Shown piece after piece: positions 1 through 6,690 of a stretch of DNA of 20,546 bases; the first letter of the stretch is position 1; each line of letters opens with the position of its first letter. This DNA comes from an uncultured Bacilli bacterium (GTDB lineage: Bacteria; Bacillota_I; Bacilli_A; RF39; UBA660). The translations under genes and the position numbers were made by a program. The stretch lies in the NCBI GenBank assembly GCA_947626095.1, contig CANQQV010000021.1, forward strand, positions 1-20,546, given 5' to 3'. The notes beneath the pieces were generated by a model. That model saw only the letters and a list, made by a program, of their open reading frames with translations. It did no database searches and was not told the DNA's origin.

Positions 1-110
1 TTAGCACCAACTACATTTTTACATTCTTCTGGAATTTCAGCTGCACTAACAGTAACTACTGATAGTAATATTGCACATAGTGCAAATACAAATAATTTTA
101 AATTTTTCAT
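1..110 (-). CDS. 5' end of a secreted surface protein (putative expression locus of the cassette system), truncated by the window edge: MKNLKLFVFALCAILLSVVTVSAAEIPEECKNVVGA...
   Basis: ATG at 110-108 preceded by SD AAGAAAGGGAGAGG. Classical Sec signal peptide (basic MKNLK, hydrophobic core, VSA/A cleavage site). Positions 1-77 are identical to 3029-3105. Absent from the ORF track because it is truncated. Confidence 0.9.
   Translation of the reverse strand, partial: MKNLKLFVFALCAILLSVVTVSAAEIPEECKNVVGA
39..77 (-). repeat. 5' cassette-boundary repeat, copy in the expression locus (39-bp core encoding CAILLSVVTVSAA)
   Basis: agctgcactaacagtaactactgatagtaatattgcaca is identical at 39-77, 1849-1887, 3067-3105 and 4319-4357. 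Confidence 0.97.
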
Positions 111-128
111 ATTTATCCTCTCCCTTTC

Positions 129-152
129 TTAAAATTGTTTGCTTTTAAACAA
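129..152 (-). other. Putative 7-codon leader mini-ORF (TTG-FKSKQF-TAA) with its own SD; its stop overlaps the SD of the main gene
   Basis: Minus strand reads AAGAAAGGAG-ATTAAT-TTG TTT AAA AGC AAA CAA TTT TAA-GAAAGGGAGAGG-ATAAAT-ATG. Confidence 0.4.
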
Positions 153-175
153 ATTAATCTCCTTTCTTACTATTA

Positions 176-204
176 AGTATACTCATCTGACTTTTATTTG
201 TCAA
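176..204 (-). promoter_or_regulatory. Sigma-A/70 promoter of the expression locus
   Basis: TTGACA (204-199), 17-bp spacer, TATACT (181-176) on the minus strand, about 65 bp upstream of the ATG. Confidence 0.85.
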
Positions 205-452
205 CATTTATATTCGTTAAAAATTCAATTTTTTTACATTTACACAAAAATATAAAAAAACTATTATTCCCATAATTAGGAGTATAATTTGCTTTTATAA
301 CAATATTATAACCAAAAATAGGAAAATATAAACTTTATTTTAATTATATTTATTCGACAAAATAATAAATATAAAAAAGATTATATACTAATTATGATCT
401 AAAACTACCACACCCTCTTTTCCTAAATAATATATTATATATTAAAAAGGAT

Positions 453-546
453 GAAATATCTAATATATTTATATAATATGATAAAACTCAAATATTATGT
501 CTTCACAAAAAGGAACAACCTCTCAAATAAATATATTAGATATTTC
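453..546. repeat. Perfect 20-bp inverted repeat around a 54-bp core
   Basis: gaaatatctaatatatttat (453-472) is the exact reverse complement of ataaatatattagatatttc (527-546). Confidence 0.85.
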
Positions 547-630
547 TTTTTTATTTTATGTACCGTACATTTGTATGCATATAAACATATATATTATAAT
601 ATTGTACATCATACATATTAATATATACTT

Positions 631-1887
631 CTATACAAGACCAGCATCATATGTGTTTGGAGCTTGTTCTTCTGGTTTAGCAGCTGGTTTCTTATCATCT
701 TCTGCTTTTGTTGAAACTACTACTTTGTAGTCGCCTTCTTCTTTAACAGTATAACCTTCTGCTACTAATTGATTAGATACATCATAGTTTATACCTGCAA
801 TAGTAACTGTAGCAATAATATTATTTAAATATTTACCACCCGTTAAAATTCCTTGATAAGCTTTAGCAACTATTACCTTATCATCAACTTTAGTTGCAGC
901 ATTAATAAACATAGCGGCACGGTTAGTTGCTTTACTATTAAATTCACCACCACTAATTGCGTATGTAGCATTTGGATTAGTTAAAGATAAAGCATAACCA
1001 CCTGTTGTAGATTCAAGTGTACCACCTGTTATTGTTAATGTTGCTTCAGCAGTACCACTAACTTCAACAGCATCTTTACTAGAAGATACAATTTTTCCAC
1101 CATTAATTGTTAGAGAACCTTCATATAAATGGAATGCATCACCAGTACTAACAGTAAATGTACTATTATCAAAAGTTACTACAGATTTTCCTCTAATAGC
1201 GTTTCCAGAAACAGCAGCTACTTTACTATCTTTAACCGAAATGTTAGCTGCTGTTGTAGTTGCAGAACTAGCACTACTTGGTGTTGCAAATAAAGCACCA
1301 ACATCATATGCTCCACCATTAATAATAGTAGTAGTATTATGAGAAGCTACATTAGCCATTGTTGCTTTAGCAGTTACTGTTAAACCATTTAATGTAAGAC
1401 TTCCATTATTTACAAATAATGCTGCAGTACCAGTTGCAGTAAATGTTCCACCAGTTACCGCTGTTGTTCCTGAGTTATTTACTAAAGTACCACCAGTTGT
1501 AGAAGTAACATTATTTAATGCTAAATTTCCACCTTTGTTTACAATGATTGTACGACCAGCAGTCAATTTAGCACCAGTAATAGTTAAACTACCTTTATCT
1601 GCTACTGTAATAGTAATTGTCGAAGCAAAGTTTACGTCGTTATCGTTAGCTAAAATAGTAACATTTTTAGAAATTGTATATGAGCTGGCTTGAACATTTA
1701 AGTTTTTACCTTCACCTAAAATTTCAACTGTTCCACCATTTTTTACTGCTTCTACAAAAGCTTCTTCTGCAGTATCAGCTTTTTGACCATTATATAAAGC
1801 TTCACAAACACTTTGACCAGCAACTGGATCATCAGTTGGTAGGTAACAAGCTGCACTAACAGTAACTACTGATAGTAATATTGCACA
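631..1887 (-). pseudogene. Silent cassette A (418 codons): variable beta-helix-like surface-protein segment with no start codon, partial signal peptide and truncated anchor
   Basis: Open frame from CAILLSVVTVSAACYLP... to ...APNTYDAGLV-stop. It forms the second half of the 826-aa track ORF. Rich in T/G/N/V with I-x-GG-x-F/Y repeats. Confidence 0.8.
632..710 (-). repeat. 3' cassette-boundary repeat, copy A (KAEDDKKPAAKPEEQAPNTYDAGLV)
   Basis: Matches 1916-1994 with 3 synonymous mismatches. 631-729 matches 3128-3226 with 3 synonymous mismatches. Confidence 0.95.
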
Positions 1888-1888
1888 T
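1849..1888 (-). repeat. 5' cassette-boundary repeat, copy A
   Basis: 40 bp identical to 39-78. Confidence 0.97.
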
Positions 1889-1915
1889 CCATATCTACTT
1901 AATGCTAATCCCATA

Positions 1916-1994
1916 TATACAAGACCTGCATCATATGTGTTTGGAGCTTGTTCTTCTGGTTTAGCAGCAGGCTTCTTATCATCTTCTGCTTTTG
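1916..1994 (-). repeat. 3' cassette-boundary repeat, copy B
   Basis: Near-identical to 632-710 and 3129-3207, encoding the same peptide. Confidence 0.95.
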
Positions 1995-3066
1995 ATGGAT
2001 TAACTGTTACTACTCCATTTTCAGTTGTAGTTGTTGCATTTCCAGTTAAGATTGCAGCAGCTGCAGCAGCATAAGTCTTACGACCATTTTCTTCTACATC
2101 TCCTACAATAGATCCAGTAAATTCACCTTTTTTAATCATTCCGTTATGATTAGTTAGGAATTTTTCATTACGAATATGTAATGCTGGCATTTGTTTTCCA
2201 TCTTTATCTTTACCAGAAGTAACTTTACCACCTTCAAAGCTATAAGTTCCATTTGATCCATCGAACCAAATAGCTTCTTCAACTGAACTTGATGTAGATA
2301 TTTCTCCACCTTTAACAGCTAAAACGTTTGTGTATTTAGCATCTGGTTCTTTTACCCATATAGCTGTTCTAGTTCCTGTAGCTTTAATAGTACCACCATT
2401 AATATTTAATGTACCATTTTTAAGTTCAAACACTCTTTTTGATGATGTATAAGAACCACCATTTACATTAACTATTGTAGTACCAGCATCTAGTGATACT
2501 AGTGCATCTGTTTTTAAATCATCAGTTGTTACTTTAGCATTTAAGTTAATAGTTAAATTTTTGTTTTTACCTGGATCACAATCAACTAACTCATTAGAAA
2601 CTGTCCAATCTCCATTAATATTAACTACTGTAGCTTTTGTAGCATCTTCAACTTTAACAACAGCACCTTCATTATGAGGAGCTCCAGAATTACTTACAAC
2701 TGTTACATCGTCAGCAAATGTTAATGTAGAAGCACTTTTTTCAGAATTAACTTTTAAACTAGAAGTATAACCAGTTTTAATTGTACCATTTTTGATAGTA
2801 ACATTGGCACCTTTAACTGTCCAAGAACCACCAGCAAATGTATGAGTTCCTTCGTTTAAGTTAAGTGTAACATTTTTATCGATTTCTACAACTCCACCAG
2901 TTGAAGCCCATGTATCAGTATCTTTTAAGAATACAATTTCAGCTGTTTCGTCTTCTTTAATATCAGTTAAAGCACTTCCTAAAGATGTAAAACATTGATA
3001 TTGTCTATCTGAATACTTAACAAAATATTTAGCACCAACTACATTTTTACATTCTTCTGGAATTTC

Positions 3067-3105
3067 AGCTGCACTAACAGTAACTACTGATAGTAATATT
3101 GCACA
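3067..3105 (-). repeat. 5' cassette-boundary repeat, copy B
   Basis: Identical to 39-77. Identity extends to the window edge (3029-3105 = 1-77). Confidence 0.97.
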
Positions 3106-3127
3106 AACCATATATTAATATATACCT

Positions 3128-4366
3128 CTATACAAGACCTGCATCATATGTGTTTGGAGCTTGTTCTTCTGGCTTAGCAGCTGGTTTCTTATCGTCTTCT
3201 GCTTTTGTTGAAACTACTACTTTGTAAGTATCTTTTCCAACAACTTCATCTTTTACAGTATAACCTTCAGCAACTAATTCATCAGATATATTGATTGTTG
3301 CACCATTTACAGCTTCACGATCTGCTGTAATATTTAATAAATATTTACCACCAGTTAAGATACCTTTTAATGCTTCAACAACATGTGTTTTACCATCTTT
3401 ATCAGTTTCTAACATTGCTGGAGTTAATCCGATAGCAGCTTTAACATCAGTACCACCATTTAAAGTGCCATTAGTTATTGCATATGTTGCTTTTGGATTT
3501 CCAAGACTCAATGCAAATGATTTTTTTGCAGTTATTGTTCCACCATTTATAGTTAAACTTGCATCTTCACTAGTTCCAGTTGTTGTAATTGCATATGCAT
3601 TTTTAGCAACAAATTCACCATTTTTGATAGTAGCTTCGCCATCACTTAAATATAGTACACTATCATTTGCAGTTACTTTTGTTACATTATTAACTACTAA
3701 TTGAGTACCATGTTCAATAACAAATGCATTACCTGATGTTGTATAAGTTCCACCATCAACAGTAACTTTAGATGGAGTTTCATCATCTGGAGCTGCAGAT
3801 TGACCTGAAGTAACTACAGCAAGAGCATTAGTAACAGTAGCATTTAAGTTAACATTTGCTCCATGAGCAGTTAAATTTACAAGTTTTCTATTTCCAACAT
3901 TAACTTCACCAGTAATTCCAACTTCACCAGCACCAGCAACTGTTATAAATGCTGAGCCTGAATTACCAGCTGTAGTTTTAGTTGAATGAAGTAATAATTT
4001 TCCACCTGCATTAACAACAAATGCACCACCTGTTGTGTTAACATTTAATTCAGTACCTTCAATAGTAAGTGTTCCACCATTAGCAACTGTAAAGCTACCA
4101 TTAGAACCTAAAACTACTTTATGATCACCTGATTTAATTGTTACATTTTTATCAATTGTTTCAGCAGCAGAAATGTTTAAATTAGCGTATAAAACCATTG
4201 TTCCGCCTTTTTTAGCTTCAGTCCATGCTTGACCAATTGCAGCAAATCTGTCACCATTTACAGTAGCTACACATTCACCAGGTTGAGCATTCTTTCCATC
4301 AGCTGGTAGGTTGCAAGTAGCTGCACTAACAGTAACTACTGATAGTAATATTGCACATAGTGCAAA
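3128..4366 (-). pseudogene. Silent cassette C (412 codons); the track ORF 3128..4198 starts at an internal Met
   Basis: The frame is open 56 codons upstream of 4198 (FALCAILLSVVTVSAATCNLPADGKNAQPGECVATVNG...). It is directly preceded by an in-frame TAA (4369-4367) and has no start codon or SD. Ends APNTYDAGLV-stop. Confidence 0.85.
3129..3207 (-). repeat. 3' cassette-boundary repeat, copy C
   Basis: Near-identical to 632-710 and 1916-1994. Confidence 0.95.
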
Positions 4367-4367
4367 T
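4319..4367 (-). repeat. 5' cassette-boundary repeat, copy C (longest boundary match, 49 bp)
   Basis: Identical to 39-87. Confidence 0.97.
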
Positions 4368-4375
4368 TAAGAATT

Positions 4376-4398
4376 AAAAAAAGAAGTATTAAACTTCT
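4376..4398 (-). terminator. Probable intrinsic terminator between the Rpn gene and the cassette array
   Basis: Minus strand AGAAGT-TTAAT-ACTTCT followed by a T run, overlapping the stop codon. The stem is short. Confidence 0.6.
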
Positions 4399-5266
4399 AT
4401 AATATTGGCATACTAAGTCGTTTTGATAATTCTTCATTTGACATACCTGAATTAATAAGCTTTAATAAATTAGCTCTTTCTTCTTGACGGCCTTCTTTAA
4501 TACCGGCTTGTCTTCCGGTTATAATGCCTTCTTTAATACCATCTTCTTTGGCTTCTTTTAAGTCGGCTTCTAATACATCTTTTAAATACTTCTCTTCTTC
4601 GTATTCTCTTTGCATAGCTTTATATTGGTTTACGATTTTCTCTATGTCTTTCATAACACTCTCCCTTTCTTTATTTCCTTTAGCATATATCGCCATCTCT
4701 TTAAAACTAGTTGCATCAAACATTACATAATCTAATTGTTTTTCCATGTCTTGATTATAGCATAAGTTAGACAATATTGGTATATAAATATTAATTATCT
4801 TAATACTATTTAAATCTAAATTATTATCTTTATCTTTTAATGTATAGATAGATGTTCCTATCTCTTTTCTATCTTTAGAATAAAAGTTATTTAAGTTTAC
4901 TTGAATAACTTTTATTTTATCTATATAACTAGTTTTATTATCTTTAGCATAGTATTCTCCGGCTATCTTATAGAGATATGATTCATTACGATTACTTAGT
5001 CCTTTATTATACTTAGGATTTAATTCAATATTAATCTTAATCTTTTTATCAGGTGATTCTAATAAGATATCGACTATATTACCTTTACTATCTTTTCTTT
5101 TAATAGGTAGTTCATTAGGGATTAAGATAAAGTTACTAATATCAAAGTTAACGATATTACTAATAAGACGATTAAAATAGTTTCTTGTTTCTTTACTACC
5201 TATTAACCATAAAGATTTAAATAATTTATCATAAGTTAAAGGAACAAATGGGTTTTCTATTTCCAT
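4397..5266 (-). CDS. Rpn-family recombination-promoting nuclease / PD-(D/E)XK nuclease family putative transposase (289 aa)
   Basis: N-terminal D-x-x-F-K motif (YDKLFK), VDILL...INIELN nuclease motif, IQVNLNNF, and a C-terminal GIKEG...GIKEGRQEER plus GMSNEELSK tail typical of the family. Start reassigned to ATG 5266, which follows GAAAGGAGG. Confidence 0.85.
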   Translation of the reverse strand: MEIENPFVPLTYDKLFKSLWLIGSKETRNYFNRLISNIVNFDISNFILIPNELPIKRKDSKGNIVDILLESPDKKIKINIELNPKYNKGLSNRNESYLYKIAGEYYAKDNKTSYIDKIKVIQVNLNNFYSKDRKEIGTSIYTLKDKDNNLDLNSIKIINIYIPILSNLCYNQDMEKQLDYVMFDATSFKEMAIYAKGNKERESVMKDIEKIVNQYKAMQREYEEEKYLKDVLEADLKEAKEDGIKEGIITGRQAGIKEGRQEERANLLKLINSGMSNEELSKRLSMPIL

Positions 5267-5332
5267 AAGGTATATACCTCCTTTCACTATAATTATTCGC
5301 GATTAAAGGTCTATTTCCTTTTTTTTTAAGAG

Positions 5333-5372
5333 AAAAAAAATAAAGATCTAGCTTAAAACTAGAACTTTATTT
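5333..5372 (-). terminator. Intrinsic terminator ending the rel-dtd-hypothetical operon
   Basis: 14-bp stem with one mismatch (aaataaagatctag / ctagaactttattt), followed by a T run on the minus strand. Confidence 0.75.
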
Positions 5373-6690
5373 AATTATTCCATGTCTTTATATTAACTGA
5401 TTCGTTTTCACAATCATCAGATCTATCAATAACATTTCTTTGTTTATAAACACATAAAGTTATTATATTATCAGTCTCTCTACTTATCTTAAACGCTGGA
5501 TTAGTTATTGTCGAATGATACATTTGTGAGAATTTTAATTGTAATTGATATCTTTCAGTTTTACCATAATCTATAAAATGTAAAATACTATCATTACTTG
5601 TTAAATAAGCAACATAAGATCCTCTTTCAATTATTTGATTAACTCTTTCAATATTTAAGAATTCTCTTCCATCTTCCATTCTATAAATTTTATAATCTGT
5701 AAATTCTTCACTACCAACTACTCGATCTTTACCTGTCTTAATATAATAAGTTAAATTGTTATTACGCCATACATCATATATTGGATCTTTACTATCAATA
5801 GATACTTTCTTATTCTTATATAAATCATAAACATACCATACATCATCTTTACATAAAATATAGTACTTCGTATCTTCATCATAATTTACAGATTTATATT
5901 CAAATGGTAATACTTCTTTTATATCGCCATCTTCTTCAATATGTATAACGCCCCATTTAGCATTATCCATACTCTTAACGATAAAGTTATTATTCTCCCC
6001 ATTTGATTTTTCTAAATCAGCATTATATGTACTATCTTTAACATCAGCATATTTAGCTAATATCTTACGATCATCTAATAAGAACTGATATAAATAAACT
6101 GTTCTTGAATAACCAGCATCACCATATTTTTTATCTTGTTTTTCTGAATCATCAACAAAAGCAAATTTATCATATATATTACCCATTACATGTTGTTCTT
6201 CTAAAGCAGTTAAAGGATCTTTATTTATAATATTATAATCATCATAACCACCAAAGGCCTTATTACAATCACTAGCTGTATTTAAACATTTATAAGCTCC
6301 CACAAATTCGTATTTACTATCATAATAATATAATAAGCCACGATGTTTATCAGCCATTGAATAATTATCATCTGGTATTTCATAATCTTTTGGTACCACA
6401 GGCAAATCAGGTCTTGCCTCTGGTTCTTCTCTTGCTTTCCAAAAAGGTACTAATTCTTCACCTTTTTTTGCATTTCTACTATATTGACGATATATATATC
6501 CAAATGATATATATTCATCAACCGTTCCATCATCATAATCTATTGTTGTATGTATAGCCAATATTAAAGGTTGACTATGAGTATATCTAACATAATTAAT
6601 AATAAATAATATGCCCCATAAAATAGCTAATATTAATAATAGTATTTCTATTTTTTTCTTTTTCGATAATTTAACTGGTTCCTGATACAT
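5371..6690 (-). CDS. Hypothetical membrane-anchored protein with a WG-repeat-like beta-rich extracellular region
   Basis: 439-aa ORF with SD GAGGTG, a basic N-terminus plus one TM helix, and KWGVI...VLPFEYKSV resembling a WG beta repeat. Confidence 0.7.
   Translation of the reverse strand: MYQEPVKLSKKKKIEILLLILAILWGILFIINYVRYTHSQPLILAIHTTIDYDDGTVDEYISFGYIYRQYSRNAKKGEELVPFWKAREEPEARPDLPVVPKDYEIPDDNYSMADKHRGLLYYYDSKYEFVGAYKCLNTASDCNKAFGGYDDYNIINKDPLTALEEQHVMGNIYDKFAFVDDSEKQDKKYGDAGYSRTVYLYQFLLDDRKILAKYADVKDSTYNADLEKSNGENNNFIVKSMDNAKWGVIHIEEDGDIKEVLPFEYKSVNYDEDTKYYILCKDDVWYVYDLYKNKKVSIDSKDPIYDVWRNNNLTYYIKTGKDRVVGSEEFTDYKIYRMEDGREFLNIERVNQIIERGSYVAYLTSNDSILHFIDYGKTERYQLQLKFSQMYHSTITNPAFKISRETDNIITLCVYKQRNVIDRSDDCENESVNIKTWNN

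Follow-up and report, generated by a model that had tools for sequence, protein, structure and literature searches.

Does the end of a contig from an uncultured gut bacterium mark the place where a stored surface-protein gene was copied into an expression site? The question is raised by a 20,546-nt stretch of DNA, hereafter the window, which is the whole of contig C21 of G000, a metagenome-assembled genome (MAG) of an uncultured Bacilli bacterium of the RF39 lineage. Position 1 of the window is an end of this contig, and a first-pass annotation had taken the sequence there for an expression site that currently carries a copy of a nearby cassette, B, while the donor remains in place. This reading stood in part: the expression-site leader and a shared core are indeed joined to 38 bases of B, and B lies 3 kb upstream on the same contig, but only these 38 variable bases could be matched.

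The repeat at the contig end

A repeat scan and blastn gave 100% identity over 77 nt between positions 1–77 and 3029–3105, which bears out the exact identity reported in the first-pass annotation (77/77 nt), and no other 77-mer of positions 1–4500 recurs in the assembly. The repeat has two parts. Bases 39–77 are a common 39-nt core, and bases 1–38 are specific to cassette B, as had also been claimed; in this segment the expression site agrees with B at 38/38 positions and with the other 14 silent cassettes at 7–16/38. Such a match to B, against 7–16/38 elsewhere, is far beyond chance and makes a B-type allele at the expression site likely.

The two limits of the repeat have different origins, and the boundaries proposed for it hold on one side only. 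The right limit (77/78) is biological, as position 78 belongs to the leader of the expression site whereas position 3106 belongs to the spacer that follows cassette C. The left limit is technical, because position 1 is a contig end and the length of the repeat equals the k of the assembler. The assembly has 34 contigs (1.62 Mb in total, every contig at least 5,025 nt), is 91.3% complete and 7.9% contaminated, and offers 68 contig ends. At k = 60–75, 34/68 ends have a terminal k-mer that is also present elsewhere in the assembly; the count is 32/68 at k = 76 and 30/68 at k = 77, against 1/68 for the 78- to 80-mer and 0/68 for the 90-mer. A drop of this kind between k = 77 and 78 is what a de Bruijn assembler with a final k of 77 leaves behind; the records of related MAGs bear SPAdes-style NODE_length_cov names. 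The contig stops at position 1 because the k = 77 path reached a 77-mer that merges the expression-site path with B, and the twin of positions 1–77 inside B (3029–3105, reverse strand) is the graph vertex where the paths from cassette C and from the expression site come together. In short-read MAGs, the homology blocks of such loci are exactly where the assembly breaks, and a contig-end repeat as long as the assembler's k must not be taken as a conversion tract.

The junction itself has a firmer standing. Each of the k-mers from 12–88 to 38–114 contains both leader-specific and B-specific bases, and the shared core (39 nt, or 49 nt relative to most cassettes) is shorter than k, so the junction of leader, core and 38 nt of B must come from reads. 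That it must be present in them we infer from de Bruijn logic and not from inspection of the reads.

The expression site and the silent cassettes

Positions 110–1, read on the reverse strand, are the 5' end of the only copy of the family that has a promoter, a ribosome-binding site and a start codon, and the site is conserved in the sister species G005; the description of this end as an expression site was thus sound. The promoter is of the sigma-70 type (TTGACA-17-TATACT, 11/12; 176–204, reverse strand). It is the best site in positions 1–4500, and both of its hexamers are retained in G005. The scan of positions 1–4500 returned 21 sigma-70-like sites against 23.4 expected from shuffles, and because it was not enriched, the site at 204–176 taken alone is weak evidence. 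The 5' untranslated region (UTR; 111–175, reverse strand) contains the ribosome-binding site GGGAGAGG at 117–124, and about 53 nt of it together with the leader are almost identical in G005. The leader comprises codons 1–11 (MKNLKLFVFAL; 78–110, reverse strand, with the ATG at 110–108) and is specific to the expression site. It is joined to the 39-nt core (39–77, reverse strand), which encodes CAILLSVVTVSAA in the h/c region of the signal peptide and which at the expression site extends to position 87 relative to most silent copies. The last 38 nt before the contig end (1–38, reverse strand) are the start of the variable body of the expressed gene, with codons for EIPEECKNVVGA, and equal positions 3029–3066 of B.

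A ribosome-binding site, an ATG and a leader precede 1 of the 16 core copies in the genome, namely that at 77–39. A six-frame scan of the bin found only one other family-type leader, which belongs to a diverged full-length paralogue on contig C2. The bin, at 91% completeness, has a single promoter-bearing expression site, plus this C2 paralogue with a promoter of its own. An Rfam search of the whole window returned no RNA family.

The C2 paralogue (C2:2921–1349, reverse strand; 496 aa, MKKIKLFVFTICAILISVIGVNA...RKLRNN) has a different core. In the spacer of its promoter, downstream of TTGACA (C2:2921), there is a G9 tract (C2:2905–2897), one of seven G or C runs of at least 8 nt in the whole 1.6-Mb genome, and this tract makes the promoter a candidate for phase variation by slipped-strand mispairing. 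Two further observations concern the surroundings of the leader and its likenesses. Between the end of cassette A and the promoter of the expression site lies a 29-nt inverted repeat (444–472 and 527–555, 86% complementary, 54-nt loop). On contig C6 (36448–36529, forward strand), a leader-like stretch with an ATG, 85% identical to the expression-site leader, precedes a silent cassette; at 43 nt against 33 it is not in frame with the core, and it shows no evident ribosome-binding site. A former expression site may have left this stretch behind as a relic.

The core occurs in 16 copies with at most five mismatches, 9/16 having none. The 15 copies outside the expression site have neither promoter nor start codon, yet all are open reading frames: none has an internal stop, 11 have 409–482 codons before a stop of their own, B continues into A, and in three the frame is still open where the contig ends. 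What lies 5' of a silent core is either the tail of the preceding cassette or the terminator-like end of an R gene (described below). The window holds three silent cassettes on the reverse strand: A (631–1887, 418 codons, core at 1849–1887), B (1888–3105, 406 codons, core at 3067–3105) and C (3128–4357, 409 codons, core at 4319–4357). All three are truncated at the 3' end. A and C stop at DAGLV and do not have the membrane anchor that is present in every cassette on other contigs whose 3' end is assembled, and B, which is predicted to form a beta-helix, has no stop and continues in frame into the core of A. The read-through from B to A passes a 9-codon linker and gives an open reading frame of 826 aa (631–3111, reverse strand). 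A 22-nt spacer (3106–3127) separates the stop of cassette C from the core of B, and it resembles the ~20 nt that directly follow the stop of cassette A (609–630). This likeness suggests that repeated recombination at a single junction built up the local array.

In an alignment of the 15 silent copies, the mean pairwise identity was 0.97 over the first 30 nt, 0.37–0.70 in the body and 0.88–0.99 over the last ~150 nt, and the body identity between silent copies had a median of 67% and a maximum of 81%. A block of 39–49 nt in the signal peptide and a block of ~150 nt over the C-terminal stalk and sorting signal are common to all copies. The expression site has homology blocks in common with the silent copies on both sides of the body; on the 3' side the block is the anchor on contig C12, whose link to the expression site is deduced from synteny as follows.

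The 3' end of the expressed gene does not lie on C21. Upstream of the expression site, a gene for a 439-aa membrane protein (5371–6690, reverse strand) serves as a synteny anchor that is conserved in G005 and in another sister species, G010. The gene order in G010 is the 439-aa gene, four full-length family genes and then hisS-asnS-aspS-gatCAB. In our genome, hisS and onward are found on contig C12 with 91–94% identity to G010, and C12 starts with ...LSAIGASVVSVRKLRNN and a stop codon, that is, an anchor ending in RKLRNN, followed by a hairpin plus T-run that we read as a terminator. By synteny with G010, the start of C12 would be the 3' end of the expressed gene, and a body of ~1.2 kb between position 1 of C21 and position 1 of C12 is unassembled. 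No retained contig end matches C21:78–3028, in a bin from which contigs shorter than 5 kb are absent, so the exit of a B copy towards C12 is not seen.

The encoded protein, its relatives and the R gene

The usual C-terminus of a cassette, ...PNTYDAGLVYMGLALSAIGASVVSVRKLRNN before the stop codon, has a motif followed by a hydrophobic helix and then a basic tail. Its sorting motif reads PNTYDAG and not LPXTG, and the family tail had no match among the sorting-signal models of NCBIfam and Pfam. Five sortase-family genes score above the cut-off in the genome. The structural model of cassette B (pLDDT 88) is all-beta, and although a Foldseek search with it gave no row at E ≤ 0.001, the weak rows (best E 0.15) were nearly all right-handed beta-helices. 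Among them were two beta-helix adhesins, the binding region of the Lactobacillus reuteri SRRP (5nxk, probability 0.93–0.95) and Streptococcus pneumoniae PfbA (4mr0). Unlike adhesins of the SRRP/PfbA type, the family described here has neither a serine-rich repeat region nor LPXTG. A paralogue in G010 matches the Pfam family Pectate_lyase_5 with 32 bits against a cut-off of 24.3. Judging from these sequence features and models, the family probably consists of secreted, cell-wall-anchored beta-helix surface proteins.

The sister species show other arrangements of the same family. In G010, the four full-length genes stand in tandem at the syntenic place (G010:C1:8054–14099), each with a signal peptide and an anchor, and this array may be the ancestral state of the layout with one site and silent copies. 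In G005, the 439-aa gene is directly followed by the expression site, where the contig breaks off 76 nt beyond the beginning of the core; the genome has one expression site and at least eight further core copies, many of them at contig ends, and it has R genes too. Many start-less cassettes of the G005 type were found in the protein collection. Two full-length proteins of a sister strain in the same collection, P0026 and P0028, have the same leader and a variant core. Their N-terminal 24 aa and C-terminal ~70 aa are identical, and the body contains all the differences, which bring the overall identity down to 63%. Two alleles of a single expression site would look like this, and so would two paralogues.

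The known distribution of the family is narrow. A species-representative collection contained 13 loci of the family, all in records of uncultured Bacilli MAGs. The 5' UTR pattern, with up to three mismatches allowed, was found among 401 genomes of the order only in our genome and at one site with three mismatches in G282. Exact-pattern scans of JGI metagenome contigs gave 0 hits for the leader/core and 0 hits for the 5' UTR.

Directly upstream of silent cassette C lies the R gene (4397–5287, reverse strand; 296 aa), a member of a multi-copy family. The genome has seven full-length copies with a conserved upstream region (one in the window, one each on C8, C24, C28 and C15, and two on C19), and in 5/7 of them a silent cassette follows within ~50 nt downstream. 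The family is present in 11/27 genomes of the genus. A Pfam search of R at E ≤ 0.01 returned nothing except a weak match to DUF6115, and 1/18 aligned members of the R family (P0018, E 5e-6 to R) matched PF12784, PDDEXK_2. The structural model of R has a pLDDT of 68. The sequence of R had no PDB match at E ≤ 1, and the model gave no Foldseek row at E ≤ 0.001; the weak Foldseek rows (best E 0.013) were rich in restriction endonucleases and McrC, and VIA-align matched the C-terminal helix only. R may be a nuclease of the PD-(D/E)XK type, or a mobile element. Rpn/YhgA-like nucleases are described both as promoters of recombination and as toxic defence proteins (PMC5350276, PMC10400941). A role of R in switching is speculation.

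Origin of the junction and comparison with known systems

The contig-end repeat hints at cassette copying. We favour the explanation that duplicative recombination copied a B-type cassette, whole or in part, into the expression site of the sampled population, so that at least the 5' end there is of B-type origin and the donor stays in place; we hold this to be somewhat more likely than not. Recombination guided by the 39–49-nt signal-peptide block and the ~150-nt 3' block would replace the expressed body with a stored one; RecA is encoded in the genome. That the join marks a copying event and that donor and copy stand in one genome we infer and did not observe. The path through the assembly is a loop, from C to B to A to the promoter to the leader and again to B. 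Gene conversion would fit such a loop, but the direct core repeats could equally have given it through a tandem duplication or an excised circle.

The alternative that survives best is that the expressed allele is an independent close paralogue, B', which shares its first 13 codons with B and was not recently copied from it. We consider this unlikely. It is in keeping with a paralogue that related cassettes are most alike just after the core: the closest silent pair, C17_43 and C19_6978, already agrees at 35/38 positions of the segment though the bodies are only 81% identical, which leaves room for a B-like paralogue. In addition, a clear expression site is present in only one other genome, G005, and the assembly of that genome contains no identical twin of the allele visible there. 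However, that pair is the best of the 105 silent-silent pairs and none reaches 38/38. Moreover, the bin contains no second B-like sequence, and among 40 hits in a collection of 5.8 billion proteins (length range 223–711 aa) no B-like protein was more than 73% identical. An independent assembly of the expressed allele is likewise absent from these hits, which weighs against the copying explanation.

A rather improbable alternative is that the leader–B junction arose from unequal crossing-over at the direct cores, which would give a tandem duplication of B, A, promoter and leader, or from an excised circle, the true allele being another one. The graph can be drawn as a closed loop from C through the shared vertex to B, A, the promoter and the leader and again to the shared vertex, and the cores at 39–77 and 3067–3105 are direct repeats 3,028 nt apart. 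A leader–B–A fusion would be translatable, because the frame of B is free of a stop and continues into that of A. Such a fusion would nevertheless end at DAGLV with no anchor. If a second allele were present, the path should fork at position 39, where the core ends, yet the contig continues to position 1, and an excised circle, being non-replicating, should be rare.

It is similarly improbable that the junction is a metagenomic artefact, produced either by a switch of strain through a promoter, UTR and leader shared over more than 77 nt or by chimeric reads at the core. The contamination of the MAG (7.9%) is compatible with this, and so are public metagenome data. Five public runs from two studies were considered as Logan contigs (k = 31), and four of them were aligned to positions 1–4500. 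In the runs with the locus, at least three other continuations follow a leader that is identical over 31 nt or more (loose ends at 73, 94 and 96), and indel variants at 112–117 match the UTR of the G005 type; a join across strains is possible because other leaders and cores and these UTR indels occur in the same samples. A switch of strain would still put B behind the expression-site leader in some genome, however, and chimeric reads are normally so rare that they are lost during assembly. In the contigs that were retained, furthermore, the path from 114 to 1 has no branch.

The same runs leave the 77/78 junction neither confirmed nor refuted, because contigs built at k = 31 cannot bridge a 39-nt core; the fragments on positions 1–4500 were 73–561 nt long and none bridged it. 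The Logan word depth over B was 5.6 and 6.8 in X1, 5.2 and 6.9 in X2, and 3.9 and 5.0 in X4, about 1.2 times that of A and C and not twice, in a measure that is unfit to rank parts of a gene and in runs that are perhaps not the source sample. At positions 114–628, upstream of the expression site, the word depth was 14–15 in X1 and X2 against ~4–7 for the pieces of A–C, and this excess probably comes from co-resident relatives that share the region. Three joints in these data (996 to 3601, 2434 to 3832 and 3285 to 813) were set aside, each resting on a single low-depth contig with 90% likeness that may represent paralogues of other strains.

Switching by site-specific recombination at the core, as in a shufflon or invertase system, is very improbable: the core is short (39 nt) and exact in 9/16 copies like a recombinase site, and an R gene of possible nuclease fold flanks 5/7 silent loci, but A–C are in direct orientation with the expression site, so that an exchange would delete and not swap, and the long 3' homology block would be needless. 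A search for tyrosine and serine recombinases (PF00589, PF00239) found none in the window, the nearest being ~16.7 kb into C12, and the direct core repeats together with this result make site-specific inversion unlikely. An inversion shufflon of the Mycoplasma vsa/vsp/vpma type was rejected, as the cores are direct and there is no adjacent recombinase.

The system around the repeat has good support as a new case of a familiar type of variation system, in a host where none was expected. More tentatively, and as a picture whose parts need not all hold, we propose that an uncultured Bacilli bacterium of the rabbit gut replaces whole-gene cassettes of a wall-anchored beta-helix adhesin, with one site by hisS, at least 15 intact silent genes spread over several loci, and homology blocks in the signal peptide and the sorting signal, that the silent loci are perhaps seeded or serviced by R, and that the system evolved from a tandem array of paralogues. 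The sister species would offer a view of how a system of this kind could arise from such an array.

Most known cases of recombinational antigenic variation that combine a single expression site with silent cassettes come from pathogens such as Borrelia, Neisseria, Anaplasma, Treponema and some mycoplasmas. A literature search on antigenic variation in RF39 or silent cassettes in gut commensals gave nothing relevant among the matches listed, and one on silent cassettes, expression sites and gene conversion in Firmicutes gave only work on Borrelia and on protozoa among the matches listed. If our interpretation is true, this would be, as far as we searched, the first description of a vmp/pilE-type system of antigenic variation from a gut commensal of this group. 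The complete architecture in a small-genome, uncultured gut commensal would suggest that host immunity (e.g., IgA) or phage pressure selects the same solution.

In vlhA of Mycoplasma synoviae and in pilE/pilS of Neisseria, one expressed gene is accompanied by 5'-truncated pseudogenes that serve as donors for gene conversion. These systems mostly exchange segments, and their proteins, a lipoprotein haemagglutinin and a pilin, are unrelated to the wall-anchored beta-helix proteins described here. In Borrelia burgdorferi, the vls array is oppositely oriented to the expression site. The vlsE/vls system resembles our locus in that the cassette array is directly upstream of the expression site and conversion is unidirectional with the donor retained. 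Conversion in vls is segmental among cassettes that are ~90% identical, whereas our cassettes are full-length genes with bodies ~50–80% identical and lie in direct orientation.

The closest known system is vmp of the relapsing-fever Borrelia, which likewise has one promoter-bearing site and many silent, promoterless whole genes. B. hermsii is described as having ~60 silent genes, an upstream homology sequence (UHS) of 61–62 bp that reaches 26 bp into the coding region, and downstream homology sequences (DHS) of 214 bp (PMC6011951). The vmp genes switch by duplicative, non-reciprocal conversion, whereas here the system is known from its architecture and the switching itself is unobserved. Our locus appears to be chromosomal, with housekeeping neighbours, and not on a linear plasmid, and it belongs to a MAG of a gut Bacilli bacterium and not to a spirochaete. 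The silent copies here additionally lack the start codon and 8–11 leader codons, and the 3' block is inside the coding region, over the stalk and sorting signal. Both systems nevertheless share the same plan, in which a short 5' block that overlaps the start of the coding region is combined with a longer 3' block.
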